64,000 nt of DNA from an uncultured Clostridia bacterium. Lineage in GTDB: Bacteria > Bacillota > Clostridia > TANB77 > CAG-465. The translations under genes were made by a program, and so were the position numbers. Position 1 is the first letter of the stretch; every line of letters starts with the position of its first letter. The notes beneath the pieces are model-generated. The model was given only the letters and a program-made list of their open reading frames with translations. It was not told the DNA's origin and ran no database searches. Below, piece after piece: positions 12,925-30,018 of this stretch. The stretch is taken from NCBI GenBank assembly GCA_944383015.1, contig CALWOC010000002.1:262383-326382 (forward strand). The letters run 5' to 3'.

Positions 12925-12936
12925 TATATTGTTAGA

Positions 12937-13030
12937 TAAATATAATAAAACCCGCTATTTTTAATAAATAGCGGGTAAATTTTATATTTTTTAAATATCT
13001 TGAAAAGTTCCTTGAAATTCTATCTTTTAG
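12937..13030. repeat. attL: imperfect direct repeat copy including a duplicated rpsI terminator hairpin and 3'-end-like sequence
   Basis: Aligns with 30019-30109 at ~75-80% identity; conserved blocks taaatataataaaaccc, ctatttt, gcggg, gaaaagt.ccttg.aatt.atcttttag. Confidence 0.7.
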
Positions 13031-13537
13031 TAAATTACAAATGTGGAAAAATAAAGCTTTATAGGCATTTTTGCATATTGTAAGCATATTGTAAATATAA
13101 GTTTGGAAAGTTTTTTAAACTCTTATATAATAAAAAATTGTAGAGTTTATATAATTTTTCTCTATATATATAAAAATTATATATATTAATTATAAAATAT
13201 ATATTAATATTTTTTTGTACATTTTGTACTAATAAACTTCAAACTATATAAAAATAAATAAAATCTAATATACACATATTTGTACAACTAATGTACTTTA
13301 ATGTACACAAGTATATTTTTATAAATTTATATACAAATATTTAATTTAGAATATAACTAGGATTAATGAGGCTTTATTCTAGTTAATTTTTATTATTAAG
13401 ATATTAAATTATATTATTTTATAAGTAAAATACTCCACAATTAAACCTGGAATCAATTTTATAAAATGTAGAAAAAAATATGTACTTCTCTATTCCAACT
13501 ATATATAATTTACCTCATAGAAAGGAGAATTTACATT

Positions 13538-13855
13538 ATGGAAAATGGAGTTGAAGAACAAAAAATTTTACAACAATTATTTGATGTATTAGACGGCAGA
13601 TTACCTTCGATGACTAAGTATGAAAGAAAAGATTATAATGCATTTGGAGAAAAATTAGAAAAAAGATATAAGTATGTAAAAGACTCAATAGATAACAAAG
13701 ATTATGATAATATACTAAATTCTGTAAATGATTATATTGATATGTCTAATGCAAAAAATTCTTTTATGGACAATTTATATTTTAGAGATGGACTTACTAC
13801 CGGTATTACTCTAATGTGTGAAGTATTTGAAAATAATAAGAATAAGGAAGATTAA
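13538..13855 (+). CDS. hypothetical protein (element cargo)
   Basis: ORF with RBS aaaggaga. Confidence 0.45.
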   Translation: MENGVEEQKILQQLFDVLDGRLPSMTKYERKDYNAFGEKLEKRYKYVKDSIDNKDYDNILNSVNDYIDMSNAKNSFMDNLYFRDGLTTGITLMCEVFENNKNKED

Positions 13856-13961
13856 ACAATTTAAAAAGTGTCATTTTATTAATTTTTTGATAGTAATTAT
13901 ATATATTTACTTAGAAAGTGTATATACTTTTAGTTTATTTTAAGTAAAGGAGTTAATTACT

Positions 13962-15536
13962 ATGATAAAAGATAATATGACACTTTTATTGTATTATGAT
14001 GAAACTACAACCTTAATTTATAATATGATAAATAATAGTGTTTTAGGAAAAATTGATAATGATAGTAGTTTGATTAGATATTTGTTAAATATAATGGAAC
14101 TACACAATGTAAGAGTAAATGAAAATGATTATTTAGTTCTAAGAAAATTAGATAATGTTGTAACTACTCTACAAAGAGTAATAATAGAATTTTATAGTGG
14201 GTATGATGTTAAATTAAAGAAATTATTGAATAAAGGTTATGAAGTAAATCACATTAATAAAGATAAATTAGATAATAGACTTTGTAACTTAGAATTAGTA
14301 TCACACTTAGATAATATAAAACATAGAGATAATAAACAATATACTGTGGTTTATTCTTCTAATGAGTTACTTAAACTACAACATATTGTAAAGATTAACC
14401 AACAATATAAGAAAGATACTATATATTTACAAAAGATGAATAAGTATATAATAGATAGTGTAATAAGAAAAGATAGTAATAAAAGTATAGATAAATGGTT
14501 TGGTTGTAGGTATTGTGATTATTTATTATTTAATAATGTTAAAACTCTAACTAAAAAAAATGCTTCTATAATTAGAGAGAGTAATAATAGAGTTACTTTT
14601 ACTAATGTAAAAAAATATACTAAAAAAAGTGCATTTTCTCCTACTAATATAGATAGAATAATATCTTCTTATGATAGATATATAGTACATAGAACTATAA
14701 TAAATAATATAGAAGTAATAAACAAACTAATTAGTCTAAAACAAAATAGTAATTTTAATCTACTCTTAGAAAAGATAGATTTTATATATATAATAAAAGA
14801 ACTAAAAAATAATTATCTACATACTCCTAATAATTACTTAATAATAGAAGATAATATACTACTTACTCTATCTATAAAAGATATATTTAGAGAAATTAGA
14901 AGTAAAAATAAAAAACTACTTATACTCTACTTACTAAATATATTCAAAAGATTAGATAGTGTAAAAAATAATACTAACTATTTTAAATATAAACAAAGAC
15001 CTACTACTCTAATTATTCCATATTTATTAAAAGAAGATTTTATAAATATAGACCTTATATCTAAGGACTTATTAAATTATTATAAAAATATAACTTACTC
15101 ACTACTTACAAGGAACACGGGTAACACTTCTTCTCAACTAATATATAGAAATAGTAATTTAGAGAATAAATATAAAAATAGAGATATTAAAACTATTGAA
15201 GATATATACACCATTTTATCTAATAACACTGATTTACAAAAGTATGGTTATATTACTATTAAAGATTTAGTTACTTCTCTAAGAGTTTTAAATGAAGAAA
15301 GAAAAAATAATGGACTATCTTACAATAATATTTTAAATGGTACTGAGAAGTTTGTAAGGAGACATCTTAATAAGGACACACAACTTATAAATGATTTATC
15401 TAAAATTGGTATAAAATATATTTCTCTTAATAATAAAACTATCTCCTCTATTCTATCTTATCAAAAAGAGAAAAAGACTTATTCTTTATACCTTAATAAA
15501 AAGGTTATTGTATTATCTAAACTATATAAAAAATAA
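13962..15536 (+). CDS. hypothetical 524-aa protein, extremely N/K/I/Y/L-rich
   Basis: A 1.5 kb stop-free ORF in very AT-rich DNA is unlikely by chance; RBS aaaggag; no recognisable motif. Confidence 0.5.
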   Translation: MIKDNMTLLLYYDETTTLIYNMINNSVLGKIDNDSSLIRYLLNIMELHNVRVNENDYLVLRKLDNVVTTLQRVIIEFYSGYDVKLKKLLNKGYEVNHINKDKLDNRLCNLELVSHLDNIKHRDNKQYTVVYSSNELLKLQHIVKINQQYKKDTIYLQKMNKYIIDSVIRKDSNKSIDKWFGCRYCDYLLFNNVKTLTKKNASIIRESNNRVTFTNVKKYTKKSAFSPTNIDRIISSYDRYIVHRTIINNIEVINKLISLKQNSNFNLLLEKIDFIYIIKELKNNYLHTPNNYLIIEDNILLTLSIKDIFREIRSKNKKLLILYLLNIFKRLDSVKNNTNYFKYKQRPTTLIIPYLLKEDFINIDLISKDLLNYYKNITYSLLTRNTGNTSSQLIYRNSNLENKYKNRDIKTIEDIYTILSNNTDLQKYGYITIKDLVTSLRVLNEERKNNGLSYNNILNGTEKFVRRHLNKDTQLINDLSKIGIKYISLNNKTISSILSYQKEKKTYSLYLNKKVIVLSKLYKK

Positions 15537-15610
15537 GATTTTATCACACTTTCTATATATTTATATGAAAGATATATTAAGTATATCTAAATAAAAGGAG
15601 TGATAACACA

Positions 15611-15802
15611 ATGACTAATATTTACAAAGTAAAAGAAGTAGCAGACATTTTAAAAGTAACACCTCACACTATAAGAAGTTATATTGCAGAGCAGAAACTA
15701 AAAGCTATCTATATGGGTAAAGGTTTTATGATTAGAGAAGATGATTTAGATGAATTTATAAAAAGTAGATATTTATTCCAATACAATAAAGGAGAGAATT
15801 AA
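15611..15802 (+). CDS. excisionase-family (HTH_17/MerR-like) small DNA-binding protein
   Basis: VKEVADILKVTPHTIRSYIAEQKLKAIYMGKGFMIREDDL matches the excisionase-family HTH pattern. Confidence 0.55.
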   Translation: MTNIYKVKEVADILKVTPHTIRSYIAEQKLKAIYMGKGFMIREDDLDEFIKSRYLFQYNKGEN

Positions 15803-16267
15803 ACTTTAAATATAACCCACTAATTCCAGATTTAATCCTAATGAACTTTCTACTTAAAGATATTAAATTATATTACTTAGTAGGTAAAGTTTTTTAAATT
15901 GACACCACTAAAAACTTTCTGAAACTTTAAGTCAAAGTATGTACTTTTTAAAAATCACAATTTAAAATTATACCAAGATGAGAGGTTTAATTGTAAGTAT
16001 AAAGGTGGTGGTTATAGTGTTAGTAAATTTTAGTTTATTTTATATTTTGGTAGATAGACTCATATAGAGATAGACTCTATGTGGGTCATTTTTTAGTATG
16101 AATACCATATTTTAATTGTTTTTCAAAAGTGATAATCTAGGTTTAATTTAAAGAAACTTTTGTATTAAAGATATATAACTAATATAAAAAGATATAAAAT
16201 TTAATCTAGGTTTAATATGGAATCAATGGAGTAAAAAGTTTAGTTTTATTATAAAGGAAGATAAAAA

Positions 16268-16597
16268 ATGAGTAAAAAGGAAAAAATAAGATGTATTTTA
16301 GTAAAGGTATTTGAACAACCAAAAGTAATAGAGATAGAACATAACCTATCTACTTTACAAAAGTATGTTGGTGGTCTAATAGATATTGTAGAGTTAGAAA
16401 ATGATGTAGATATTATTATAAATGATGAAGGTAAATTGTTAGGTCTATCTCCTAACTTAGTTTTATATGAATTTAGAGACATTATAGTTGGAGATTTTTT
16501 AGTGGTAGGTCAAGAAAATGGAGAGACTATATCTTTAAGTGAAGAAAAAATAAAAAAGTATATGGAAAGATTTGATTTAAAAAGGAGACTACTATGA
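16268..16597 (+). CDS. DUF3846 domain protein (conjugative/mobilisable-element-associated family)
   Basis: Pattern IRCILVKV...LQKYVGGLIDIVEL...IIINDEGKLLGL...EKIKKYMERF matches the conserved DUF3846 profile. Confidence 0.5.
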   Translation: MSKKEKIRCILVKVFEQPKVIEIEHNLSTLQKYVGGLIDIVELENDVDIIINDEGKLLGLSPNLVLYEFRDIIVGDFLVVGQENGETISLSEEKIKKYMERFDLKRRLL

Positions 16598-16827
16598 GAG
16601 AAGATGATTTAGATATTGTAGAAATAATACTAAGTAATATTCCACAAAATAGTGAAATTCAAAAGAGAATAAAACTATATATTGAAACTCATAAGAGTAA
16701 TTGTAATGACTATATCTATACCAAATATAGAAAAGAGAGTATATATTTTAATTCTATATTTAAAACTTTAAGAGCAGGTTTAGAAAGTGAAATTGTAAGA
16801 ACTTTAAATAGAAAAGGTATGTTATAA
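16594..16827 (+). CDS. hypothetical small protein
   Basis: ORF overlapping the upstream stop (ATGA coupling). Confidence 0.35.
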   Translation: MREDDLDIVEIILSNIPQNSEIQKRIKLYIETHKSNCNDYIYTKYRKESIYFNSIFKTLRAGLESEIVRTLNRKGML

Positions 16828-16894
16828 ATAAGTGTTACTCTTGTTACTTGTGATTTACAAACTAATTTTGTATAATATAGAAAAGGTGGTTTAA

Positions 16895-17584
16895 ATGGAA
16901 AAAGGAAATGAAAATAAAGGAAATGTATTATATGTATTAAATACATTAAAAAAATATAGTGATGATGAACACATATTAAGTAGTAATGAAATAAAAGAAT
17001 TGATAAAGAAAAATTATGATGTAAATATAGATAGTAGAACTATAAGAAGAAATATAAATTTACTTATAGAAAAGTTTGGTTATGATATATCTACATATAA
17101 TGATAATCGCAAAGGTTATTATTATATTAAAAATATAGATATAGACTTCACATTAGGAGAAATTATTATGATTATAAATCAAATAAAGTTAGCTAATGAT
17201 ATAAATGAAGAAACATCAAATCTTTTGTTAAATAAATTAGAAAAACAAATTAATATATTTGATAGAGAAAAACTAAAATCAAATATAGCAAAAATGAAAG
17301 AACAAAAAACAAAGAATTGGGAATTAGTAAATAGTTTAGAAATAGTTTCACAAGCAATAGAAGAAAAGAAAAAGATACAATTTATACATAATGGAAAGAA
17401 TATTATATACTCTCCACAATATATTGTGTATAGAAAATTTAAAGTACTTACACCTTTTAATTATATAGTTATAGGAATAAATAATACACTTAACAATAAT
17501 ATTGGAATTTTATTAACTAGTATGAAAAATATAAAAATTTTAGATGAAGAGTGTGAGTTTTTAGATGAAGAAAAAAACAAGTAA
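16895..17584 (+). CDS. wHTH-WYL domain transcriptional regulator (BrxR/CapW-like architecture, short form)
   Basis: N-terminal HTH_11-like (VLYVLNTLKKYSDDEHILSSNEIKELI...SRTIRRNINLLIEKFGYDI); C-terminal WYL-like beta-rich region (IQFIHNGKNIIYSPQYIVYRKF...NYIVIG...IGILLTSMKNIKIL). Confidence 0.5.
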   Translation: MEKGNENKGNVLYVLNTLKKYSDDEHILSSNEIKELIKKNYDVNIDSRTIRRNINLLIEKFGYDISTYNDNRKGYYYIKNIDIDFTLGEIIMIINQIKLANDINEETSNLLLNKLEKQINIFDREKLKSNIAKMKEQKTKNWELVNSLEIVSQAIEEKKKIQFIHNGKNIIYSPQYIVYRKFKVLTPFNYIVIGINNTLNNNIGILLTSMKNIKILDEECEFLDEEKNK

Positions 17585-17680
17585 TACATTTTTAGACCAA
17601 CGAAAAATTCATAGTATAAAATTCATATACAAAATAACTTCAAAATGATATACTCTAAATAAATAGTTTGGAGGTTCATT

Positions 17681-18058
17681 ATGGGGTTATTTTTGTTAGA
17701 TGTAGGAATTAAAAAGGAAAGTATATATAAAATGGAAATATTTGATAAAGAAAAGAAAGAAGTAGATATTATAAGAAAAGAATTTAACCTACCTACTTCA
17801 AAAGTATTGTTATATAAAGATGATGATATATTTTATGGTAAAGATAATGTTGAATATTTTACTACATATAAATTAGATAACTTAATAAAAGAACTAAAAA
17901 ACTTTAATAATAGTATAGTAATAATTAACCTATCTAAAATTAAAAACAATAATAGATTTAAGGAAAGAACAAACAATGAATTTTTTAGAATATTAGAGGG
18001 TATTAGTATTGTACTTAATATAAAATTTATTGTTTATGAAATAAAAAAGGAGAGATGA
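17681..18058 (+). CDS. hypothetical protein (WYL-regulator-adjacent)
   Basis: RBS ggagg 6 nt upstream of the ATG; translationally coupled to the next ORF. Confidence 0.4.
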   Translation: MGLFLLDVGIKKESIYKMEIFDKEKKEVDIIRKEFNLPTSKVLLYKDDDIFYGKDNVEYFTTYKLDNLIKELKNFNNSIVIINLSKIKNNNRFKERTNNEFFRILEGISIVLNIKFIVYEIKKER

Positions 18059-18405
18059 AAATTCAAGATATAGTGGTAATTCCATTAGGAGTATTTGGTA
18101 AAGAAATAATAAAAGATATAGTTTTAAATGATAATGTAAAAATTGTATATAGTGATGAACTTAAAGATTTAAACTATAATATACCTCCACTACTCTTATG
18201 TATTATTGGAGATATAAAAGAAAAAGTAGTAAAAGAATTTTTTAACACACATAGTGGTTTTTTCGCTATAAATATTGTTGGTATATTTAAGAAAGATAGT
18301 TATAATAAGGAATATGATTTTATAGATTACTTTTATGAGATAGATAATGAAAAAGTGTTTAAGATATTTTTTGATAACTTTATAAAATTAAATAATAACC
18401 ATTGA
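18055..18405 (+). CDS. hypothetical protein (WYL-regulator-adjacent)
   Basis: ATGA overlap with the upstream ORF; no family recognised. Confidence 0.4.
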   Translation: MKIQDIVVIPLGVFGKEIIKDIVLNDNVKIVYSDELKDLNYNIPPLLLCIIGDIKEKVVKEFFNTHSGFFAINIVGIFKKDSYNKEYDFIDYFYEIDNEKVFKIFFDNFIKLNNNH

Positions 18406-18522
18406 AATGAGGTTTTATTTAGAAGAACTTTCTATACTTAGTTATATAAATTTATATCTATTAGTAGAAAGTTAATTTAAGATATAAAGGAGAAAAAAGA
18501 AGCATACAAAAGTATTATTACA

Positions 18523-18891
18523 CTATTGTATGCTTTTTAATGCAATTAATATACCTTCTAATCTTAGCTTGTTATCATCACTTAAAGAATTATATTCTCT
18601 TAAAATATACTTTTCTTTTTCGCTTAAATCACTTTTAGAAGATAAAATAGATATTGGAGTTGGGTCATTTGTCAAATCTAAAAGATAGTCTGTGGAGCAA
18701 TGAAAATAATTAGCTAATTGTATTATAAACTCAATATTTGAAGTCCTAGTTCCAGACTCTAACCTAGATATAACTTCTTGATAAGTATTATTATCTTCAG
18801 CGACTTTTCTTTGTGAGTAATGATTATCTTCCCTAATTTTTTGTAAATTCTTTTTGGGTGAAATTTCTTTGTTTTTCTTTATTTTATCCAC
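18523..18891 (-). CDS. XRE-family (Cro/CI-type) HTH transcriptional regulator
   Basis: HTH_3 motif LQKIREDNHYSQRKVAEDNNTYQEVISRLESGTRTSNIEFIIQLANYF; likely GTG start at 18891 with RBS aaaaggag (the ORF-track N-terminus looks spurious). Confidence 0.7.
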   Translation of the reverse strand: MDKIKKNKEISPKKNLQKIREDNHYSQRKVAEDNNTYQEVISRLESGTRTSNIEFIIQLANYFHCSTDYLLDLTNDPTPISILSSKSDLSEKEKYILREYNSLSDDNKLRLEGILIALKSIQ

Positions 18892-18930
18892 TCTATCTAC
18901 TCCTTTTATTAAATTATAACAATAAAAGGG

Positions 18931-18979
18931 TTGTAAAAAAAGTCGAAAATTGGTATAATTAGTATGACATATTGTCATA
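18931..18979 (+). promoter_or_regulatory. sigma-A-type promoter (TTGTAA-17-TGnTATAAT) with overlapping palindromic operator TATGACA-N3-TGTCATA
   Basis: -35 at 18931-18936, -10 at 18954-18959, perfect 7-bp inverted arms at 18963-18979 between the -10 and the RBS; divergent from the XRE gene. Confidence 0.5.
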
Positions 18980-18999
18980 TAATATGAGGAGGTTTTTAT

Positions 19000-20046
19000 A
19001 TGGAAAATAACATATTCAAATATGCGACTAAGGAGCTTAGTCAAGATGCTTTTATTTGTTGGTTGGTAGAGTGGATTAATCACAAAGAAGAAAATTCAGA
19101 ATTGTATGAAGTATCAAAAAAGTTTTTAGATAAAATTATAGAAAAGTATAATAAGAAAAACACTAAAAGAAATTTAAAGGTCAATGATTATAATAATGTA
19201 AAAATATTAAAACAAGATAAAAATATAGATGTTTTGATAAGTTTTGAAATTGAAAATAATGAAACAATATACATTATTATTGAAGATAAAAAATTAACTT
19301 CGGAACATGATAATCAAATAAACAAATATAAAAGTAAATTAATTAATAAAGGAATAAAGGAAGAAAATATAATAACTACATATTATAAGATGTTTTATGA
19401 ACCAAATCAAATAGATGTAGATGTATTAATTGATAGAAAGTTTATGCTTGAAATAATGGAAAATTATTATATAAAAAATGATATATACATTGATTATTAC
19501 AATTATTTAAGTTTGATAGAATATAAGTGTAAAAACATCAAAAAGTTTCCATTGAAAGAAATTAATGAAAATAAATTTTTGCTATATGAATTACAAAAAA
19601 TATATTGTAGTCATAGTGTAAAAAAACAAATAGAAAAATGTGGTGTTGGTTGGTTTAGAGGTAGTTTACTTTATACGTGGTATATAAGAGAATTAGATAA
19701 AGATTACTTCTTAGATTATTTATATCTTGAAACAAAACTTAGATTAGATAGATATGAATTACAAATTAGAGGTCGCTTTGAGGATAAAGAAAATGGTAAG
19801 TTAAAATATAATGAAGATGAAAGAAATAAATTACAAGAAAAAATAGAAAAATATTTTTCAAATAATAGTAATATAAAATTTGAAAAATTTAATAAAAGAG
19901 AAGCTAATGAGTCAATGATTTTAGCTAAGGTTAAACTACATTTTAAGAAAGATGAAGAATATAAAGTTAGTGATTTATTAAATCTAATGGAAGAATTAGA
20001 AAGAGTATTAGATTTATTTATTGAAAATAAAGAATATAAAAATTAA
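19000..20046 (+). CDS. hypothetical protein with putative N-terminal PD-(D/E)xK nuclease motif
   Basis: NIDVLISFEIENNETIYIIIEDKK fits hhhD-x17-E-x-K; first gene of an XRE-controlled operon. Confidence 0.4.
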   Translation: MENNIFKYATKELSQDAFICWLVEWINHKEENSELYEVSKKFLDKIIEKYNKKNTKRNLKVNDYNNVKILKQDKNIDVLISFEIENNETIYIIIEDKKLTSEHDNQINKYKSKLINKGIKEENIITTYYKMFYEPNQIDVDVLIDRKFMLEIMENYYIKNDIYIDYYNYLSLIEYKCKNIKKFPLKEINENKFLLYELQKIYCSHSVKKQIEKCGVGWFRGSLLYTWYIRELDKDYFLDYLYLETKLRLDRYELQIRGRFEDKENGKLKYNEDERNKLQEKIEKYFSNNSNIKFEKFNKREANESMILAKVKLHFKKDEEYKVSDLLNLMEELERVLDLFIENKEYKN

Positions 20047-20054
20047 AAAGGAAT

Positions 20055-21146
20055 GTGATAAGTATGTATTGTGAAAAATGTGGAAATAAACTAGATGATG
20101 ATAGTAAATTCTGTGATAAATGTGGAACTGTTATAGAAACTACTGATAATATAAAGAAAAGTAAAGACAATGTTTTTAAAAAATTTATATTACCTTTAAT
20201 TTTAGTTACATTATTTATTATATTAATTTTTATAGGAGCAAATTTAATTTTAAATAAACATAATGAAAAATCAGAAGAATATAAACAAGAAATTAATGAA
20301 GAACTTGATAAAAAAGTTATAGCTACATATAATGGTGGAAAACTTACAGATGAAGAGTTTGAAATATATTATAAAATGTTTATAGATTATTTAAGAGATA
20401 AAAAATATAATGAAAGTGAAATACCAAAAATAGTAGTAAATAAAGCAATTATAGATAAATTAGTTTTAACTGAATCACACAAAAACAACATAAAAATCAC
20501 ACAAGAACAAGAAAAAGAACTAAATGAAACTTTTGAAAGTGAAGATTTTAAGAATTTGTGTGTTAATAATAACATTGATAATGAAAAATTAAAAGAACTA
20601 TATAGAAATGATTACATTATAACTAATTATATTGAAGAACAAGCTAAGAATTTGAGCGATAGTGAAGTTATAACATATTTAAAAAATAAGTATGGTAATG
20701 ATGTAGACTTATACCAATATACTACTCAAACAATAATGTTTTTAAATAATTCTGAATTTACAGCAGAGCAGAATGCTATATCAATGCTTAACTATATAAA
20801 ACAAGGAGCAGATTTTACAGAGATGGCTAAATTATATTCAGAAGATGAAGGAACAAGAGATAATGGTGGAATATATATATGTTATGATGATGAAAACACA
20901 GATGAAAATTATTTTAATGCTATAAAACTATTAACTCCAGGAGATGTGAATAAAGAAGTAGTTACAACTGGTAATGGTTATGCAGTAGTTAAGTTAGTAT
21001 CAAAAGTAGAAAATGGTAGAGCAAAAAATGAACTAGATAGGAAAAATATTATAAATGAAAGATTAGATAAATTATCTAGTGAATCTAATATAGTTATAAA
21101 TGATGAGGCACTAAATCAAGTAGTACAAGAATTAGATAATAAATAA
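20055..21146 (+). CDS. membrane protein: N-terminal zinc ribbon, one TM helix, C-terminal parvulin-type PPIase domain
   Basis: CEKCGNKLDDDSKFCDKCG; TM LPLILVTLFIILIFIGANLIL; parvulin-like ISMLNYIKQGADFTEMAKLYSEDEGTRDNGG...GNGYAVVKLV. Confidence 0.5.
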   Translation: MISMYCEKCGNKLDDDSKFCDKCGTVIETTDNIKKSKDNVFKKFILPLILVTLFIILIFIGANLILNKHNEKSEEYKQEINEELDKKVIATYNGGKLTDEEFEIYYKMFIDYLRDKKYNESEIPKIVVNKAIIDKLVLTESHKNNIKITQEQEKELNETFESEDFKNLCVNNNIDNEKLKELYRNDYIITNYIEEQAKNLSDSEVITYLKNKYGNDVDLYQYTTQTIMFLNNSEFTAEQNAISMLNYIKQGADFTEMAKLYSEDEGTRDNGGIYICYDDENTDENYFNAIKLLTPGDVNKEVVTTGNGYAVVKLVSKVENGRAKNELDRKNIINERLDKLSSESNIVINDEALNQVVQELDNK

Positions 21147-21160
21147 TATGAGGTGATTTT

Positions 21161-21634
21161 ATGTATTGTAAAAATTGTGGAAAAGAAATTAGTGAAGATA
21201 ACGTAGTGTGCAAATATTGTGGAAAAGATTTAAAAAGTAAAAATGTTAATGAAGAAACTATAAGTAAAAAGAAAAAATCAAATACTTTGGAAATGGTATT
21301 ATCTTTAATAACTATATTTGTAGGGATTTTTATAGCAGTATGTGTACAATCTTTTTACATATTCATATTTGCATTTATGGTGGTAATAATGGGGTTTGCA
21401 AGTATGACAATAGGAGATGCTAAAGGTATAAATGCAGGTTTTTATTGGGGTTGGCTATTTGGAATAATAGGGTTAATTGTAGTGTGTGGTCTACCAAATA
21501 GATTAGAAAATAAAAATATTGTTGTTAATATAAGTAAGTATGATGAATTAGAAAAATTACAATCATTAAAAGTAAAGGGAATATTAACTCAACAAGAATA
21601 TGAATTAGAAAAGCAAAAAATATTAGAGAACTAA
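21161..21634 (+). CDS. membrane protein: N-terminal zinc ribbon, TM helices, C-terminal SHOCT domain
   Basis: CKNCGKEISEDNVVCKYCG; hydrophobic core; C-terminal LEKLQSLKVKGILTQQEYELEKQKIL SHOCT-like. Confidence 0.5.
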   Translation: MYCKNCGKEISEDNVVCKYCGKDLKSKNVNEETISKKKKSNTLEMVLSLITIFVGIFIAVCVQSFYIFIFAFMVVIMGFASMTIGDAKGINAGFYWGWLFGIIGLIVVCGLPNRLENKNIVVNISKYDELEKLQSLKVKGILTQQEYELEKQKILEN

Positions 21635-21647
21635 AAAATATAATAAG

Positions 21648-21681
21648 TGAGAGTAATACTATGTGTACTACTCTCATTTTT
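21648..21681. terminator. terminator between convergent SHOCT gene and small recombinase gene
   Basis: tgagagta-loop-tactctca hairpin followed by T-run. Confidence 0.55.
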
Positions 21682-21759
21682 TGACTAATTTGTCTAAAAG
21701 TGATATTCATATTTGTATTTTAAGACACTTTTATTATTAAGATATAAAATTATATTAAC

Positions 21760-22329
21760 TTATAAGCAAAAGTCATCATACATATTGTTGATTTCATCTT
21801 GTGATATACCTATATATCGAAGTGTGATACTAGGGCTACTATGATTAAATATTGTTTGCAACATAGCAACATCAGCATATTTTTTATAGTTGTGGAAACC
21901 GAATGTCTTTCTCATAGTGTGAGTTCCTATACTATCAGTGATACCAACCATTTTTGCTGCATCATTAAGAAATCTATATACTTGTGTGCGCGTAAGAGAT
22001 TGATTAGCTCCTTTCCTACTTTTAAAAATATACTCATATTGTTGCATTTGTTTAGTGTAATCTTCTAGTTCTTTTTTTAATTCGACATTAAATCTAAATG
22101 TCTTCTTTTTATTTGTTTTCTTTTCTATAATTGTAATGTCATCTCGCATAGTACCATTTTCATATCTAATATCACTTACTTTAAGCTTTATAATATCTGA
22201 TACCCTTATACCAATATTTATACCTACTTTGAAAATAAGATAATTTCTTTTGCCTTTTCCTTGTTCTAATAATACTTTTTTCATTTCTTCGATTTTGTTC
22301 AAATCTCTAATTGGTTCTACTAAATTCAT
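21760..22329 (-). CDS. small (189 aa) tyrosine recombinase lacking an arm-binding domain (FimB/FimE- or Xer-like size class)
   Basis: Catalytic R...HxxR...Y (GTHTMRKTFGFH ... LRYIGIS); the last 4 codons overlap repeat R3. Confidence 0.7.
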   Translation of the reverse strand: MNLVEPIRDLNKIEEMKKVLLEQGKGKRNYLIFKVGINIGIRVSDIIKLKVSDIRYENGTMRDDITIIEKKTNKKKTFRFNVELKKELEDYTKQMQQYEYIFKSRKGANQSLTRTQVYRFLNDAAKMVGITDSIGTHTMRKTFGFHNYKKYADVAMLQTIFNHSSPSITLRYIGISQDEINNMYDDFCL

Positions 22330-22582
22330 ACTACATACATCTCCTTAAATTTTTATACATTATAATACATTGAATGTAATTCGTACATATTTTTTATTAC
22401 ATTTACTAAAAGTTATTTTTATAAAATGCTTTCTAAGTATTGAAATATAAACAAATAACACATTTTCTTTGAATAAATCAGAATTTCTAATTTGATACAT
22501 TGGCGCTTATTTTTTTATAAAAAAATTATTGAATAGCTATAATATGTGATATGGTACAAAAAATAGGAATAGCTTATATAAA

Positions 22583-23752
22583 CTATTCCTTTTCCCATAA
22601 ATTTTTTAAATAATCAACACTATAATTATATTTTTGTTTTTTTGCTTTTATCTCCACACACATTTTTTTAAATTTCTTAATATCATTAGAATCTTTATTT
22701 GTTTTATTTATACTATTATATACAGATTTAAAATAGTATTTTACAGGTTCGTATTTATCTTTATTATTTTTCATACCTTTTTGCATACTTTCCAAAGTTC
22801 TATTATATAAGTTTTGTAGTTCATCTTGCTTAGTCTTTTGATAATTGACTTTTTTTCCACAAATGGTACTACAAGTTTTTTTCTTTTTGTCATTAGAAAT
22901 AAAATAATTATCACAAAATTCACATCTTTTTACTTGTGTTTTGTTTAAAATCATTTGTTCAATTTCAAAAATGCCTAGTTCTTTTATAGTTTTAAAATAT
23001 TTATTATAACTAATAGATACATTAGAGCTTTTTATTCTGTTTAGTAATTGCCTATCTGAAAGTCCAATAAAATTATCTTTTTCTTTAAAAACAAAAGTAT
23101 TATCAGAAACATTAATTTTATTATTTATAAATATCATATCCAGTAATTCTTGCTCAGTCATATATGTTAATATAATATGTAAGTTACTTAAATCATTTTT
23201 ACATTGGAAGTAAGCTAGCCTTTTGTTTAATGATAAATCATTTAGATTTGTGTTATTGACATCAAGTATATAATAAACTGCTTTCTTCAATGTTTTTTGA
23301 CAAGCTATTAAATATTCTATCAGATATTTACCATAGCTAGAAATTACGTTTTTAATCGCCTCGTTCATATTAGGACTAGTATTAGTAATTGTTTTGTTAA
23401 ACTCATCTATATCATGTTCTCTAACTTTCCTTAAATTTTCTTCTAGTTCATTAATATGCAAATCAACATATTTGCAACTACTCTTTATTGTTCTTATAAA
23501 CTTAACATATTTGCATAAGTAACTATATGCATCTAAACAGTTAGGATAACCAGTAATATCACTATTTGCATAATCAATATTATAAAATTTTATTTTATTT
23601 TTTGAAACAAATTTTGCAGTAACTTCTTCGACTTTTGTAATATAGTCTGTTAAATCTGCATTTAAAAAATCAATAAGTGCTGTACCATATTTCACTTTGC
23701 TTATAATTAAATCATTTGTATAGGTTTTGTTATCTATTATATTTATATACAT
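22583..23752 (-). CDS. hypothetical protein with C-terminal Cys4 zinc-ribbon (CEFC...CSTIC)
   Basis: ORF; terminator hairpin overlaps the stop codon; separate transcription unit upstream of the small recombinase. Confidence 0.45.
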   Translation of the reverse strand: MYINIIDNKTYTNDLIISKVKYGTALIDFLNADLTDYITKVEEVTAKFVSKNKIKFYNIDYANSDITGYPNCLDAYSYLCKYVKFIRTIKSSCKYVDLHINELEENLRKVREHDIDEFNKTITNTSPNMNEAIKNVISSYGKYLIEYLIACQKTLKKAVYYILDVNNTNLNDLSLNKRLAYFQCKNDLSNLHIILTYMTEQELLDMIFINNKINVSDNTFVFKEKDNFIGLSDRQLLNRIKSSNVSISYNKYFKTIKELGIFEIEQMILNKTQVKRCEFCDNYFISNDKKKKTCSTICGKKVNYQKTKQDELQNLYNRTLESMQKGMKNNKDKYEPVKYYFKSVYNSINKTNKDSNDIKKFKKMCVEIKAKKQKYNYSVDYLKNLWEKE

Positions 23753-24013
23753 CTTTTTTCCTCCTAAATTGCGTAGTAAAAAAATTCACTTTTTTCAATA
23801 TTTTTTACTACTCCTACACTTTAACAAATTCCAAGAAAATGCGTTGACATCAAGGTTTTTATCGTTTATAATTGTTTTATCACGTGATAATGCGTAGTAA
23901 AAATATAAAAATATTATACTACGAAATAATAAAAGTTACAATAGCATTTAAGCTACTTGTAAAATTGTACATTGAAAAGCGCATATTGTAACAAAATGAA
24001 AGGAGTGATAGGC

Positions 24014-24568
24014 ATGTATAAGCCTATAATTGAAAAGTTTCAGCAGATAAAAGGTGAAGCAGTACAAAAAAATCAAGATGTATTATTATTAGTAAAAACC
24101 GATGAGGGGTACGCAAGAATTACTGAAAATATTGCAGTATTCTTAGAGAAAAAAGACATGGGTCCTAACGAACTTCCAAGAATAAAATTGAAGTTCGCTA
24201 ATGGGCAAATAGTCATAGTCTATGGATATAGTGATGACACTATAACTCCAGGTACTATTGTTAGTTCCTTAGGCTACTTCACAAAGAATTGTGATGTACT
24301 CCAATATTCTAATAGGTGTGGTATGACAAGAGTCTATAACACGGCTAAAGAAATTGGAAGAGTTAAAGTAGAGTATCCATACAGACTAGGTTTTTGGGAA
24401 CTTACAACTCCACAAGAATCAACCCTATATCAACCCTCAACTGAGTTTAAACAACTTGAAGATAATATCTACTATTTTATAGGAGATGTTTCAACACTTC
24501 AAGAAGTACCAAAACTTGAAGAGGGAGAAATTGATGTTACTAACTGTGGCGACTACTTTTATGCTTAA
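24014..24568 (+). CDS. hypothetical protein
   Basis: RBS aaaggag 8 nt upstream of the ATG at 24014. Confidence 0.4.
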   Translation: MYKPIIEKFQQIKGEAVQKNQDVLLLVKTDEGYARITENIAVFLEKKDMGPNELPRIKLKFANGQIVIVYGYSDDTITPGTIVSSLGYFTKNCDVLQYSNRCGMTRVYNTAKEIGRVKVEYPYRLGFWELTTPQESTLYQPSTEFKQLEDNIYYFIGDVSTLQEVPKLEEGEIDVTNCGDYFYA

Positions 24569-24647
24569 TAGTAACAAGGTCATATTAAAGGAAAATATAT
24601 TAAAGCTATGTTTTCCTTTAGTATATAAATGTAAGGAGGAATTTAAA

Positions 24648-25544
24648 ATGGAAAATGATAATATGTTGTTAGAACATAAGCAAAATGAGATACTTGAAGA
24701 TATAAGAAAACTTGTGAAAAAATATAAGTCAGAACTTAAACATATAGATTTTAATATAAACAGTATTGAAAATTTGTATGATACTTTTAATAATAAACTG
24801 TTTAATCTAGTATATGAGAAAATATATAATGGAGAGAATTTTGACTATGTTAGAGATAATTATAAATATCGTATTTATAATCAAGAAAGTATTTTAAAGT
24901 CAATGCCAAATGATATTAAGACTAATGTATCTAAATCTATTATAGATGAAATATTAAGATTTTATAATAGAATAATAGATTCGTATTACTGTGTTAATAC
25001 TACTAAATACTTAAATGAAATAAATTATGCTATTTTTAATACAGAAGAGGAATATTATAATAAAGATTATAAATTTTATAGTCCATTTTTCAGAGATTTT
25101 GCTATTGAAACTTTAATTTGTAGATTAGGAAGTTTAGGCAATATATCTGATTATGAACCTATTTATAAACTAAACTCAAACGATAAAACGTTTATATGTA
25201 AAATTTTAAATGATAGGCAGATTATGGCAAGCCTAATAATAGAGGACAACGTACATCTTTACTGTATTTTTTTAGATAGTATTGTATGTATAGGATGTAT
25301 GAAATGTAAATCTATGACTGAAGATGAGTTTCTTAATGGATTACCAAACCTTGTAGATGAATTTCAAAAACATAGTTGTTTTGACCATATTGAAATATTA
25401 GATGCTATAAGAAGTTATTATTATTATATTTTTGATAGTAAGGCAGATATAAATATAAATAGTCAAACTCTACTATCATTATTAGATTCAATTAATATAA
25501 CTAATTACTTATTAAGATATGCTTTTAGTGTATATGATGAGTAA
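24648..25544 (+). CDS. hypothetical Cys-rich protein
   Basis: RBS aaggagg before the ATG at 24648 (the ORF-track start at 24486 overlaps the previous gene). Confidence 0.4.
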   Translation: MENDNMLLEHKQNEILEDIRKLVKKYKSELKHIDFNINSIENLYDTFNNKLFNLVYEKIYNGENFDYVRDNYKYRIYNQESILKSMPNDIKTNVSKSIIDEILRFYNRIIDSYYCVNTTKYLNEINYAIFNTEEEYYNKDYKFYSPFFRDFAIETLICRLGSLGNISDYEPIYKLNSNDKTFICKILNDRQIMASLIIEDNVHLYCIFLDSIVCIGCMKCKSMTEDEFLNGLPNLVDEFQKHSCFDHIEILDAIRSYYYYIFDSKADININSQTLLSLLDSINITNYLLRYAFSVYDE

Positions 25545-25746
25545 AATAGCTTAAAAAATGTGTACAAACTGATGTTTGTTTTATATAATAAAAAATAGAA
25601 AGAATTTTATAGATTAGGCCCCTAAAAAATTCTTTCAACTCAAAAAAATTATGGAAATGCATTTGTTTTTACATTTCTATTATATTATATGATAAGAATT
25701 GCGAAAAATCAAGTGTATTTCCTTTTTAATAAAAGGAGGTAGAAAA

Positions 25747-28521
25747 GTGAGTATTGATGAACTAAAAATTGTTCTAAGTAACAAAGAAGTTGTAGAACAC
25801 TATTTAGGACCAGGCGTAGTTAGCGGAAACAATATAAAGTACAGCAGTCCTTTCAGAGATGGAGATTCAGAACCATCTCTTAGCGTATCAGATGAGCATA
25901 TAAAAGATTTTGGTGGCGATTTTTCTGGAGACTTTATAAATTTTGTTGCAAGATATAAAAATGTTTCTGAAAAACAAGCTATTGATATTATTAAAAAAGA
26001 TTTTCAAATAGATGATAATGTTACATATAGTAAATCAATATCTAAAAGAAAGTCAAATCAAAATAATTCAGAATCTAAGAATGCTATTAATGTACGTTTA
26101 GCAGAAAAAACAAGCACAATAGCGTGTATGTTTGATGAAGTTGAATTTTCTGAAAAGCCAAAAGGTTATGAAGTCGGAGGTATAAAAAATAGGATTAATG
26201 AAAATCAGTTTAAGGGCTACACATTAGAAGAAATAAAACAAAATATTGTTTTAGGAAAAACAACTATACCAGCAGGCATTAAAGGTAATGCTAAAGAAAA
26301 TTTTAAAGGACAACAACTATATATGATAGATATAGATAATGCTATTGAAGAAAATGGAAAGAAAGTAAATTTTACTATTGATGATGAAAGACATATCACA
26401 ATAGAGAAGATTATTGAGCATTGCAAACAAATAAATCTATTACCTACATTTGCATATTATAGTTTCAGTCATAGCGAAAAACAACATAAGATGAGGTTAG
26501 TATATATATTAAATGAAGTGATAACAGATTATGAAATAGCGAAAGGCTTTATTAATTATTTATTAGACAAGCTAAGTATATTCTATCCTGATTCTAAACC
26601 AACAAATTTGGCAAGTATGTTTTTTGGTGGTAAATCAATAGCTTATGAAAGTGATATTTTTTATAAGTTAGATATAGTAAAAGTAAAAGAAAAAGAAGTT
26701 AAAAGGAAAGCTAATTCTAATATTCCTAATGATTATCAAAAGGACATTGAATTATTAGAAAATAGCAATTATGTTTTTGCAGAATATGGCATATATGAAA
26801 AGAAAGAGAAAATATCTAATTTTGTACCAATTATAACAAAAGAGATTATATATGATAATGGAAATGGAGAGAAGTCAGCAGTATATAAAATTAAAGCAGT
26901 TTTGAGTAATGGGGATATATTAAATGAAGTGGAAGTAAAAATTGAAGATTTTACATCTATGAAGTGGCTGATAAATGAAACTTGGAAGATGCTACCAATA
27001 GTAAATGCAGGAGTAAGTAATAAGGATAAACTTCGTGAAGTTACACAAATAGTATCTAAAAATATGCAGAAAGAAGTTGTATATACACATACTGGTTTTA
27101 TAAAACAAAATGATAAGTATGTATATTTGTACAACAATGGTAATATTGGTGGAGATGATACTATAAAAGTTAATCTTGATGATAGTTTAGTTAGATATGA
27201 ATTTACAAATCAAGAATATGATTTGAAAGAGTGTCTACAACTAGTATATAGCATTTTAGATATAGCAGATAAAAAGATAACTTTACCATTAGTTGCTTTT
27301 ACATATCTAGCTCCTTTGGTATCACTTTTAGATGAATTAGGAATTGTACCAGATTTTTTAATGGCAGTTGTAGGAGTAAGTGGTAGTAGAAAGAGTTCAT
27401 TATCAGCTTTATTAAATTGTCATTATGGTAGATTTGATAAAGACAGTTTTGTATGTAGTTGTAAAGATACTATAAATAGTATTGAGCTTAGAAGTAATTT
27501 ATTAGCAGATACTTTGGTGGTATTAGATGATTACTATCCTAGTACGGAAACAAATGAAGCTAAAAAGATGAAAAACACTCTTGAAAAAGTTATAGCTATA
27601 TACGGAGATCGTTCAGCTAGAGGTAGATTAAATGTAGATGTTACTTTAAGGAAAGCATATAAAGCTAAGGGCTTGTGTTTAGTAACTGGCGAGTCTTTTC
27701 CAGATGTTTCAGAAAGCAGATTAGCAAGATGTTTTATTATTGACTTAAAAAAGGATAGTATAGATTTAGATAAACTAACTATACTTCAAAGAAATAAAGA
27801 TAAATTATCTTATGCAATGAAACAATATATTAAAGTTCTAATAGCAAACATTGAGAAGATTAAAAATAATGCTAAAGATAAATTTGAAAAATATAGAAAT
27901 AATATTACAAATAATTTATTGCATGGAAGAACGGCCGAAATAATATGTTTCTTACAAATATCTTTTGAATTATTTATTAACTTTCTAATATCTTATGAAA
28001 TAATAAGAGAACAAGACAAAGAGAAACTGCTTAAAGAAAGTTGGGATATTTTAAATTTTGTAGCAAATGAACAAACTTTAAAAATACAAGATAATAAACC
28101 TATAAGTATGTTTTTTAATGCTATAAGTCAACTTGAAAATACCGGAAAAATATATATAGTTAGAAACTGGCAAGAGTCTTATTTAACAGATAATAAAAAT
28201 AAAACTCTTATAGGTTTTGTAGATGAAACAAAAGATGAGTACAATAACTATTATTATTTTTTCCCAGAAACTGTACTAAATGAAGTATCTAAGTTTTATT
28301 CACAACAAGGTATAAAATTTCCTATAAATAAAACCGGACTTCAAAAACATTTAGCAGATGAGGGATATTTGAAAACTGGTAGTGATAGAGCAACTATTAG
28401 AAAGAAAATGCCAGGTCCTACTTCAAGAGATAAAACAGAAATAGTATGGGCAGTAAAAAAAGATAAAGTTCCATATTTAGAATTACAACCTTATGGAACT
28501 AATCCACCTAATTGTGATTAA
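25747..28521 (+). CDS. primase-helicase-like replication protein (degenerate CHC2-like N-terminus, AEP/prim-pol DIDN motif, P-loop region)
   Basis: GTG start after RBS aaaggagg; N-terminus resembles a DnaG zinc finger with the Cys residues replaced; LYMIDIDNA acidic motif; GVSGSRKSS P-loop-like with LVVLDDYY Walker-B-like. Confidence 0.45.
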   Translation: MSIDELKIVLSNKEVVEHYLGPGVVSGNNIKYSSPFRDGDSEPSLSVSDEHIKDFGGDFSGDFINFVARYKNVSEKQAIDIIKKDFQIDDNVTYSKSISKRKSNQNNSESKNAINVRLAEKTSTIACMFDEVEFSEKPKGYEVGGIKNRINENQFKGYTLEEIKQNIVLGKTTIPAGIKGNAKENFKGQQLYMIDIDNAIEENGKKVNFTIDDERHITIEKIIEHCKQINLLPTFAYYSFSHSEKQHKMRLVYILNEVITDYEIAKGFINYLLDKLSIFYPDSKPTNLASMFFGGKSIAYESDIFYKLDIVKVKEKEVKRKANSNIPNDYQKDIELLENSNYVFAEYGIYEKKEKISNFVPIITKEIIYDNGNGEKSAVYKIKAVLSNGDILNEVEVKIEDFTSMKWLINETWKMLPIVNAGVSNKDKLREVTQIVSKNMQKEVVYTHTGFIKQNDKYVYLYNNGNIGGDDTIKVNLDDSLVRYEFTNQEYDLKECLQLVYSILDIADKKITLPLVAFTYLAPLVSLLDELGIVPDFLMAVVGVSGSRKSSLSALLNCHYGRFDKDSFVCSCKDTINSIELRSNLLADTLVVLDDYYPSTETNEAKKMKNTLEKVIAIYGDRSARGRLNVDVTLRKAYKAKGLCLVTGESFPDVSESRLARCFIIDLKKDSIDLDKLTILQRNKDKLSYAMKQYIKVLIANIEKIKNNAKDKFEKYRNNITNNLLHGRTAEIICFLQISFELFINFLISYEIIREQDKEKLLKESWDILNFVANEQTLKIQDNKPISMFFNAISQLENTGKIYIVRNWQESYLTDNKNKTLIGFVDETKDEYNNYYYFFPETVLNEVSKFYSQQGIKFPINKTGLQKHLADEGYLKTGSDRATIRKKMPGPTSRDKTEIVWAVKKDKVPYLELQPYGTNPPNCD

Positions 28522-28674
28522 TGTACATTTTATTTGTACATTGATACAAATGTATGTAATACAACAAATGTTTATATATCAACCATTTGAAGATATATGT
28601 ACAAAATGTACAAAAATAAATTAGATATATATACAATATATAAATAATAAAAAAAAAAAGAAAGGAATGTTTTT

Positions 28675-28866
28675 ATGAAAAATAATATTAGTATAAAAGA
28701 AGCAGCTGAAAAAATGGGAAAATCAAAAGAATTTGTTAGAATTGGACTACAAAGAAATCTCTTACCTTTTGGTATGGCACAGAAAATGAGTTCAAGATAC
28801 ACATATTATATATCTCCTATAAAGTTTTATGAATATATTGGTAAACTTGAAAGGAGTCAACAATAA
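28675..28866 (+). CDS. excisionase (Xis)-like small HTH protein
   Basis: 63 aa, ISIKEAAEKMGKSKEFVRIGLQRNLLPF HTH; immediately upstream of int and overlapping it (ATGA). Confidence 0.55.
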   Translation: MKNNISIKEAAEKMGKSKEFVRIGLQRNLLPFGMAQKMSSRYTYYISPIKFYEYIGKLERSQQ

Positions 28867-29921
28867 TGAGATTACCTAATGGTTATGGATCTGTAATTCA
28901 TAATAAAAATAAGAATAGAAGAAATCCTTATCAAGTTAGAATTACAAAAGGTTGGACTGATGATGGTAAGCAAATATATTCAACATTAGGCTTCTATAAA
29001 GATAAAAAAACAGCTTTGGAAGCCTTAGCTGAATATAATTCTAATCCATATGATATTGAAACAAATAAAATAACATTTGAAGATGTATATAAAAAATGGT
29101 CAAAGGAACATTTTCCAAAAGTAAGTGATAGCTCTATTGAAAGATATGGAAATGCTTATAGAAAATATTGTAAATCTTTATATAATATGAGATTTAAAGA
29201 TATTAGATTAACACATTTACAAGGTGTTATTGATAACTGTGGAATGGCACACCCTACTAGAGCTTCAATAAAAACTTTATTTAATGTATTATTTAAGTTT
29301 GCTATGAAAAATGATATTATTGATAAAGACTACTCAAAATATGTAGATGTAGGACAAAGAGAGGGAAAAATAAATAGAACTCCTTTTAGCAAAGAAGAAA
29401 TAAAAAAGCTTTTTGAAAATGTTGATAAATTAGATTTTATAGATACTATATTAATTATGATTTATACTGGTCTAAGAGTCGGAGAATTGCTAGATTTAAA
29501 AATAAAAAATATACACTTAAAAGAGAGATATATGATTGGTGGGTTTAAAACTAAAGCTGGTACTGATAGAATTATACCAATAAATAGAAAAATAGAGCCA
29601 TTTATAAAAAAATATTATGAAAAAAATAAAGATAAAGAATTTCTTATTACAAACTTTAAAGGTAATCAAATGAATTATTCAAATTATAGAAGAGAAAAAT
29701 TTGATAATATTATGGAAAAACTAAGAATGAAACATAATCCACATGACTGCCGCCATACTTTTGCTGGGCTTATGGATAGTGCAGGTGGTGCTGGTGCTGG
29801 TGCTAGTGCTAATAAGCTGTGTATCAAAAGAATAATGGGGCACGCTTCACAAGATATTACTGATGATATATATACACATAAAACTTTGGAAGAATTAATA
29901 GAAGCAATTGATTTAATTTAA
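28866..29921 (+). CDS. int: tyrosine integrase with N-terminal AP2-like arm-DNA-binding domain
   Basis: N-terminus LPNGYGSVIHNKNKNRRNPYQVRITKG (arm-binding domain); C-terminal catalytic RHTFAG...LMGHAS...IYTH; adjacent to attR. Confidence 0.85.
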   Translation: MRLPNGYGSVIHNKNKNRRNPYQVRITKGWTDDGKQIYSTLGFYKDKKTALEALAEYNSNPYDIETNKITFEDVYKKWSKEHFPKVSDSSIERYGNAYRKYCKSLYNMRFKDIRLTHLQGVIDNCGMAHPTRASIKTLFNVLFKFAMKNDIIDKDYSKYVDVGQREGKINRTPFSKEEIKKLFENVDKLDFIDTILIMIYTGLRVGELLDLKIKNIHLKERYMIGGFKTKAGTDRIIPINRKIEPFIKKYYEKNKDKEFLITNFKGNQMNYSNYRREKFDNIMEKLRMKHNPHDCRHTFAGLMDSAGGAGAGASANKLCIKRIMGHASQDITDDIYTHKTLEELIEAIDLI

Positions 29922-29940
29922 AAAGTAAATTAACATAAAG

Positions 29941-29974
29941 TGTGCATATTGCGTGCATATTGTGTGCATATTGT
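29941..29974 (+). repeat. three tandem 11-bp repeats gtgcatattg(c/t) between int and attR (candidate arm-type integrase sites)
   Basis: tgcatattg at 29944, 29955 and 29966. Confidence 0.5.
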
Positions 29975-30018
29975 TGAGCAAATTTTATATGTTTTCTAGC
30001 CTTTTTATAAAGTTTTAA

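Follow-up and report, generated by a model that had tools for sequence, protein, structure and literature searches.

Small repressors that gate defence operons are familiar from CapH/CapP and from the parallel logic of the WYL proteins CapW and BrxR. Variable hotspots that hold defence and other cargo genes are likewise familiar from integrative elements, from phage satellites of the P4-like and PICI-like kinds, and from pipolins. Here we analyse a locus that resembles both, located at positions 18,523 to 21,634 of a 64,000-nucleotide stretch of DNA (called the window below) from an uncultured Clostridia bacterium (contig CALWOC010000002.1). In this locus, the gene for an XRE-type regulator faces three genes, called A, B and C, which encode a PD-(D/E)xK nuclease-like protein and two zinc-ribbon membrane proteins. 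The family of the A protein, PF14281 (PDDEXK_4), is listed with the function 'Unknown' (PMC3424549). PDC-S26, a PADLOC-predicted system whose model matches the A protein in part, has been named once, among the defence systems found in pipolins, in a study that also describes the defence and cargo hotspots of these elements (PMC11551731).

The reading that we favour, with a probability of roughly 60%, is that the locus is an XRE-gated, recombining cargo slot of an integrase/primase-type element of about 17 kb, which holds a stand-alone candidate defence nuclease and interchangeable zinc-ribbon membrane cassettes. A dimer of the XRE protein would bind a 7-N3-7 dyad that covers the point where a strong divergent promoter starts transcription, and would keep the downstream genes off until some signal removes it. 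The product of gene A would act alone on nucleic acid, most likely as an anti-phage or anti-mobile-element effector, and its potential harmfulness would explain why it is kept repressed. Genes B and C are members of a series of paralogous cassettes that have a near-identical zinc-ribbon 5' end, or 'handle', in common and differ in their membrane or extracytoplasmic part; homologous recombination from handle to handle would delete and reshuffle the cassettes, and the proteins may be envelope-acting accessories, not partners of the nuclease. Gene content, motifs, the mosaic structure and the co-variation of the operator are observed; repression, nuclease activity, a defence role and the functions of B and C are inferred. 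The features of the locus are as follows (aa, amino acids; HTH, helix-turn-helix; TM, transmembrane).

18523..18891, minus strand: XRE/Cro-C1-type HTH regulator, 122 aa, GTG start, recognised by Pfam HTH models
18931..18959, plus strand: sigma-70-type promoter, TTGTAA, 17-nt spacer, extended -10 TGgTATAAT
18963..18979, no strand: putative XRE operator, perfect 7-N3-7 dyad TATGACA-tat-TGTCATA, from sequence and co-variation
19000..20046, plus strand: gene A, 348 aa, soluble, nuclease-like, PF14281 family
20064..21146, plus strand: gene B, 360 aa (MYCEKCG...), zinc ribbon, TM segment, PrsA/SurA-like parvulin ectodomain
21161..21634, plus strand: gene C, 157 aa, zinc ribbon, about three TM segments, C-terminal SHOCT domain
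21648..21682, plus strand: hairpin with a G+C-rich 12-bp stem followed by T6 (hairpin listed on the minus strand by the search, plus-strand T-run read from the sequence), likely terminator of A-B-C

Mosaic cargo in sister elements

A sequence-only reading of this DNA had pointed out these features, the terminator apart, each of which is present in place or next to it, and had proposed the three genes as a candidate novel module. Spelled out as a single anti-phage or abortive-infection system, XRE, A, B and C would work together, with the nuclease degrading DNA and the membrane proteins acting as sensors or executors. The layout is suggestive of such a unit: the genes are tightly packed (17 nt between A and B, 14 nt between B and C) behind one promoter and ahead of one terminator, the hairpin of which spans 21648-21676; no near-identical copy has broken up A-B-C, not even those with another backbone downstream (loci L105-L108); and the cargo region that holds the locus takes up AbiU2 as well. 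However, the trio is found together only in copies that are at least 97% identical at the nucleotide level, L105-L108 among them, so that its co-occurrence appears to reflect clonal inheritance, or shared descent, and not selection for linkage.

More distant sisters, which share their backbone with the window element, carry other combinations. In L023, where A is 87% identical, XRE and A are followed by the gene of a 178-aa zinc-ribbon protein and then by that of a small recombinase, and B and C are missing. In L016, L019 and L020, XRE is followed by B and then by genes of 492-aa and 169/177-aa zinc-ribbon proteins, and A and C are missing. Further away, we surveyed the surroundings of distant gene A homologues at 80 genomic loci from many phyla and 5 metagenomic loci, and none of these approximately 85 loci had a B- or C-like neighbour (zinc ribbon, parvulin or SHOCT). 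Gene C, in turn, is close to an orphan, as its matches among 5.8 billion proteins are its own cluster and two weak ones only. The trio thus separates outside its near-identical copies, an outcome that the sequence-only reading had itself named as a refutation, and a single three-gene system is improbable. As an operon it is a mosaic specific to this lineage, and the main practical result of this analysis is that the locus should stay out of catalogues as a three-gene defence system.

The borders of the exchanged segments are informative. Nucleotide homology to the variants breaks at window positions 20126 (60 nt into B) and 21189 (30 nt into C), in both cases within the zinc-ribbon codons, then resumes at 21638 and breaks again at 21682-21688. 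The first ~65 nt, which encode the zinc ribbon (MYCKNCG...KFCDKCG), are near-identical at the DNA level across five otherwise unrelated membrane-protein genes (window 20064-20130 and 21161-21225; L016:4738, 5850 and 7345; L019:8107 and 9604; L023:9053), and these 5' ends coincide with the recombination breakpoints between element variants. In the simplest account, paralogous cassettes form an array here, and the 5' ends that they share would serve homologous recombination as substrates. Integron-like cassettes were also considered and were rejected from the position of the breakpoints, with no search made for attC-like structures: the breakpoints fall within coding 5' ends that share sequence, which points to homologous recombination.

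The variants that lack A (L016:4660-4737, and the equivalent segment of L019 and L020) retain the ribosome-binding site and the ATG of gene A, which open an ORF of about 7 codons some 60 nt upstream of B. This ORF could be either a scar of the loss of A or a mini leader ORF.

The XRE regulator, its promoter and its operator

The XRE protein, whose GTG start has AGGAG 8 nt upstream, consists of an N-terminal HTH (Pfam HTH_19, E = 4.7e-9; HTH_3, E = 7e-8) and a conserved C-terminal helical part. It matches the capH model of PADLOC over its full length (E = 1.2e-8, model positions 2-99 of 103), and PHROG 8, transcriptional regulator (7e-16), with additional matches to PHROG 4 and PHROG 3; comparison with NCBIfam gives RstR and DicA, both below threshold. 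The gene is found in every variant of the element, with a diverging HTH and a conserved C-terminal part. It is likely the repressor of the divergent operon.

The 108 nt between XRE and gene A contain a -35 box TTGTAA at 18931-18936, the TG of an extended -10 at 18951-18952 and the -10 box TATAAT at 18954-18959, scoring 10/12 with TG. The dyad at 18963-18979, TATGACAtatTGTCATA, begins 4 nt after the -10 and hence covers the expected transcription start, a placement that would imply repression; the ribosome-binding site GAGGAGG (18986-18992) follows, ahead of the ATG of gene A at 19000. There is no further copy of the dyad in the window with up to 2 mismatches allowed. By themselves, the counts carry no significance in this AT-rich DNA (22% GC): 43 promoter-like matches were found in the window against 42 expected, and 22 perfect 7-N3-7 palindromes against 15 +/- 4 in shuffled sequences.

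What raises the promoter and the operator above chance is the comparison with sister elements. In L016, L019 and L020, a promoter TTGACA-17-TATACT aligns to the position of the window promoter, and a perfect dyad TATGAAT-N3-ATTCATA stands in register with TATGACA-N3-TGTCATA. The XRE proteins of these three loci are 55-57% identical to that of the window; the differences lie mainly in the HTH, and the C-terminal part is nearly identical. Both arms of the dyad have therefore changed together with symmetry kept, and a compensatory change alongside the XRE HTH is well supported by these alignments. Such co-variation is the outcome that one would expect of a dimeric repressor co-evolving with its operator. 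The divergent XRE gene facing a promoter with a perfect dyad over its start, as proposed from the sequence, is thus borne out by the sister dyad, and the pair of XRE and putative operator is the best-supported functional element of the locus. More speculatively, the dyad may overlap a weak minus-strand promoter of XRE itself, in which case the regulator would also control its own synthesis.

A second perfect 7-N3-7 palindrome, GACTAAGGAGCTTAGTC, is located within gene A at 19026-19042. It overlies the codons of the invariant ATKELSQD motif, and was judged to be a by-product of coding.

The nuclease-like protein and the two membrane proteins

The product of gene A has no transmembrane or other hydrophobic segment, and is divided into an N-terminal PD-(D/E)xK nuclease domain (residues ~1-200) and a C-terminal alpha/beta domain (~210-345). 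The D-x17-E-x-K motif seen in the sequence-only reading corresponds to D77...E95-D96-K97, and its residues are invariant in an alignment of 77 family members, as are E12, S14, Q15, D16, Q106 and Y110. By this alignment, the invariant residues constitute the PD-(D/E)xK signature with a RecB/Cas4-like QxxxY (Q106xxxY110).

The sequence-only reading did not recognise the domain combination of the operon as that of a described system; the nuclease itself, however, does have recognised relatives. Database searches returned 189 homologues, many annotated as PF14281, of which P0010 is matched at E = 1.5e-28 with 98% coverage and P0031 is another; relatives on plasmids carry the annotation 'PD-(D/E)XK nuclease family protein'. 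The PADLOC candidate PDC-S26 is matched with E = 7.3e-10, the alignment comprising only residues 8-114. An exhaustive search collected 1663 representative clusters (50% identity) at E <=1e-3 and just 7 at E <=1e-30, so gene A falls within a small subclade of a big family, and its C-terminal domain is common only to this subclade. The AlphaFold2 model is confident and has two domains (pLDDT 89, pTM 0.86), with the catalytic residues on strands E78-83 and E89-96. Searched with a profile, the sequences of PDB gave no match, and Foldseek of the model against PDB gave nothing significant. Taken together, the motif and family evidence for a nuclease is strong, the fold evidence is weaker, and the activity is a predicted one. 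Gene A is thus a new member of a known, uncharacterised family.

PF14281 spans many phyla in a patchy manner, often in variable regions. A phage origin of A or of B was considered and rejected: there is no relative of A among 50,697 phage records, only 2 loci in viral contigs contain one, no PHROG family matches A, and no viral-contig relative of B was found.

No neighbour of gene A homologues is recurrent in the 80 genomic loci of the survey; the most frequent neighbour family, WYL, accounts for 4-5 of 145 neighbours. Defence genes occur sporadically in immediate proximity, including WYL regulators, mad3, capP, DRT UG5, DrmD, a type I methyltransferase, AbiEii and REase-ARP. The closest of the distant homologues (35-39% identity) have a WYL regulator directly downstream, and DUF2779, GmrSD and LlaJI-type restriction-modification genes nearby.

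An HTH regulator that adjoins a potentially toxic nuclease also brings to mind an addiction module, in which XRE and A would be a toxin-antitoxin-like pair or a C-protein-controlled restriction module that stabilises the element, with B and C as passengers. Weak matches of the regulator, to the restriction-modification 'Control_protein' model of PADLOC (E = 0.002) and to antitoxin-type HTH models, are in line with this idea. Yet XRE and A are divergent and not co-transcribed, no methyltransferase turned up in those element ORFs that were scanned with Pfam or in the gene lists of identical contigs, the 348-aa A protein matches no known toxin family, and HTH_3 proteins make up just 2 of 145 neighbours in the wider A family. 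We regard such a module as very improbable.

Gene B combines, as had been noted, a zinc ribbon, a TM segment and a parvulin domain, and only its length needs correction, from 363 to 360 aa: the ORF can be read from GTG 20055, but ATG 20064, the start that gene callers choose, agrees with all paralogues. Pfam detects Zn_Ribbon_1 (8e-8), Rotamase_3 (4e-12; 47 bits, cutoff 22.5) and Rotamase (9e-11; 43 bits, cutoff 21.7), and SurA_N_3 is slightly below its cutoff (7e-6; 26.3 bits against 27.2). With one TM segment at about residues 41-63 or, by another estimate, 35-66, the protein is predicted to have a cytoplasmic zinc ribbon and an extracytoplasmic PrsA/SurA-like chaperone part. Its best relative of solved structure is PrsA1 of Listeria (5HTF, 9e-7). 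In the parvulin region (residues ~218-310), both conserved histidines of 5HTF give way to other residues in B, one to T and one to A (RHIL to QTIM, and YGYHL to NGYAV), so that B is probably a chaperone or binding module and not an active isomerase. The B family consists of members from this group of elements and of two PrsA-like proteins that are ~35% identical, one of which, at 38% identity, is encoded after mfd, in a housekeeping-like position.

The 157-aa product of gene C has, as described from the sequence, a zinc ribbon, a membrane region and a SHOCT domain; Pfam finds SHOCT at residues 128-155 (1.2e-6; 28.5 bits against a cutoff of 27) and Zn_ribbon_3 (1.9e-6). Its hydrophobic stretches are residues 40-87, of double length, and 90-112.

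The carrier element and comparison with known systems

The locus lies on a mobile element, in agreement with the sequence-only reading. Three further features are needed here.

12936..30058, no strand: integrated element, ~17.1 kb, recognised by direct repeat, low GC and an integrase at its right end
28866..29921: tyrosine integrase, right end of the element
21760..22329, minus strand: rec189, 189-aa tyrosine recombinase with a catalytic domain only (Pfam Phage_integrase, 2e-24)

With 23.4% GC, the element forms an island of low GC between flanks of 26.5-26.9%, and it is bracketed by an imperfect direct repeat of ~41 bp at 12936-12976 and 30018-30058, with an 18-bp exact core, ATAAATATAATAAAACCC, starting at 12936 and 30018. 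These repeats are probably the attL and attR of the element. The ~41-bp repeat includes a terminator-like hairpin. Housekeeping def and HAD genes are found to the left, and the interior encodes, besides rec189, an HNH protein, an HTH_17 (excisionase-like) protein, a DUF3846 protein, a 229-aa protein and a 940-aa primase-like protein with a CHC2 zinc finger. We saw no tRNA gene, nor any capsid or packaging gene, and for want of the latter the element is not classed here as a satellite. The closest genome match is an uncultured Clostridia metagenome-assembled genome. The element is common in metagenomes: one sequence variant of gene C is indexed in 751 blocks of the collection.

The 229-aa protein (p229, window 16895-17584) has no Pfam match, and aligns at 37-39% identity with the N-terminal part (~220 residues) of WYL-domain regulators of 329-336 aa, which are encoded immediately 3' of the closest distant gene A homologues (L001-L004 and L024). 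In sister elements, a DnaB_C-domain gene is located between the gene of a 125-aa protein (p125) and XRE, encoding 446 aa in L019 and L020 (L019:4677-6017) and 256 aa in L016 (L016:3189-3959). The window has in its place a 116-aa ORF (18055-18405), the last 39 residues of which match a remnant ORF downstream of the DnaB_C gene of the sisters. This comparison points to a deletion or replacement of the DnaB_C region in the window copy.

Alternatively, XRE could be a master repressor of the cI/Stl-like sort, its target an early induction promoter, and A a nuclease of the life cycle of the element, serving recombination, replication or processing instead of defence. XRE, promoter and operator are kept in all variants and the cargo is not; the regulator resembles phage repressors, as shown by its RstR, DicA and PHROG matches; in L105-L108 every gene after C, as far as the primase-like one, has the orientation of the operon; and the closest distant homologues of A are in DUF2779-A-WYL-...-DnaB_C arrays, similar to the p229-p125-DnaB_C backbone of this element. 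On the other hand, A is missing from the same-backbone sisters L016, L019 and L020, and is thus dispensable for the life cycle; in the window, the terminator and a pair of convergent genes stand between the operon and the replication genes; and PF14281 at large is not linked to mobile-element backbones and, as noted above, is all but missing from viral contigs and has no member among the phage records. A life-cycle function of A is in our view possible but rather unlikely.

Several observations weigh against the reading that we prefer, that of an XRE-gated cargo slot with a stand-alone defence nuclease. Defence genes are normally active in the carrier state, so that one carried as cargo and silenced by a repressor would be out of the ordinary. 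That XRE represses the operon is read solely from the geometry of the dyad and its co-variation, and is to that extent a prediction. The match of gene A to Pfam PDDEXK_4 stays below the cutoff (19.8 bits against 22.3; E = 8e-4), and the PDC-S26 alignment covers only ~100 of the 397 model positions (39-140). The literature on PF14281, PDDEXK_4 and PDC-S26 amounts to the catalogue entry and the passing mention cited above, with no defence experiment found. The closest distant relatives of A adjoin WYL and DnaB_C proteins that resemble backbone genes of this element, which leaves room for a role of gene A in the element's own DNA transactions. Finally, A-B-C is the commonest arrangement in the sampled metagenomes.

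The small recombinase borders the cargo slot directly downstream of gene C, as a module spanning window positions 21680-22447, and the terminator hairpin region is also the left junction of this variable module. In NCBIfam, rec189 has sub-threshold matches to XerA/XerD and to tyrosine-type DNA invertases. The module and the region upstream of it are inverted relative to A-B-C in L106 (L106:5547-6316, 81.5% identity). In L105, L107 and L108, only the first 295 bp of rec189 are left, also inverted (L105:5547-5840), and this remnant is joined to an ORF of 248 aa, with a PIN7 gene after it. An invertible switch operated by rec189, which is of the size of FimB and FimE, was considered and rejected: the inverted copy is just 81.5% identical and sits in another backbone, and no convincing inverted repeats flank rec189 in the window, where only AT-rich matches of 70-80% were found. 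The inversion is taken as mosaicism.

Between rec189 and a 389-aa gene, sister elements have an extra 233-aa gene at the junction of window positions 22502/22560. It is annotated HEPN_AbiU2 in L011 (L011:11681-12382); L023 has a 233-aa ORF at the same junction (L023:10640-11341), its likeness to the HEPN_AbiU2 gene being one of size and position alone. In L105-L108, a PIN7-containing block takes the place of the recombinase region. The 22502/22560 junction is a second cargo insertion point adjoining the locus, and because of the HEPN_AbiU2 gene in L011, the ORF in L023 and the PIN7 block in L105-L108, the region can be described as a hotspot of cargo and defence genes.

One more possibility is that the XRE slot is a purpose-built diversification locus, in which tandem membrane cassettes with a common ~65-nt handle have their ectodomains swapped by recombination. 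The swapped modules would be the PrsA-like domain, a 492-aa domain, a ~100-aa domain and the multi-pass SHOCT protein; rec189, whose module occurs in both orientations, would possibly help handle recombination; the outcome would be varied cell-surface or superinfection-exclusion properties of the host; and the PF14281 nuclease would be a co-regulated, intracellular second line of defence. If true, the locus would be an envelope and defence module that is gated by a repressor and shuffles its cassettes, and its carrier a satellite-like element of Clostridia of a new kind. We think that the odds of this are low.

None of the findings overturns current understanding, and their interest is of three kinds. 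If gene A protects against phages or plasmids, it would provide a first function for PF14281, a large family of at least 1,600 clusters at 50% identity in many phyla, and for its PDC-S26-like relatives. The matched variants of XRE and operator are a natural specificity swap, suitable for the study of how repressors recognise operators. The zinc-ribbon 'handle' cassettes show a mobile element of uncultured gut Clostridia reshuffling its membrane-protein cargo.

Among known systems, PF14281 and PDC-S26 are the closest to gene A. They have in common with it the nuclease core (the E...SQD helix, D77, E95-x-K97 and QxxxY), a length of ~330-400 aa, a stand-alone gene with no conserved partner and a patchy distribution across phyla; gene A differs in being below the Pfam gathering cutoff and in matching about a quarter of the PDC-S26 positions (~100/397), in its subclade-specific C-terminal domain, and in its placement behind a predicted XRE switch on an integrative element.

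Repressors of the CapH type and of the C-protein type are similar to XRE in that they are small, with an HTH and a C-terminal oligomerisation part, and are divergent from a potentially toxic operon with a dyad over its promoter. XRE matches the capH model over its full length, and the distant A homologues have WYL proteins instead. In contrast to CapH/CapP, no CapP/ImmA-type protease (Peptidase_M78) is seen among the neighbouring and element ORFs that were scanned, and no CBASS, restriction-modification or other recognised system lies downstream.

The ectodomain of B resembles PrsA/SurA parvulin foldases of Firmicutes, such as Listeria PrsA1 (5HTF), with a SurA_N-like part and a parvulin domain in the order of PrsA. 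Unlike PrsA, with its lipoprotein signal, B would be anchored by a cytoplasmic zinc ribbon and a TM helix; it is also part of a mobile element and, with both parvulin histidines replaced, probably has no isomerase activity.

The locus as a whole resembles the defence and cargo hotspots of integrative elements, phage satellites and pipolins, where a conserved backbone of integrase, primase and regulator surrounds an internal slot that differs between near-identical elements and includes genes of defence type, here AbiU2, PIN and a PD-(D/E)xK nuclease. It departs from them in two respects: the slot is placed behind a promoter that is apparently under repressor control, and much of the variation seems to come from recombination between the zinc-ribbon 5' ends.

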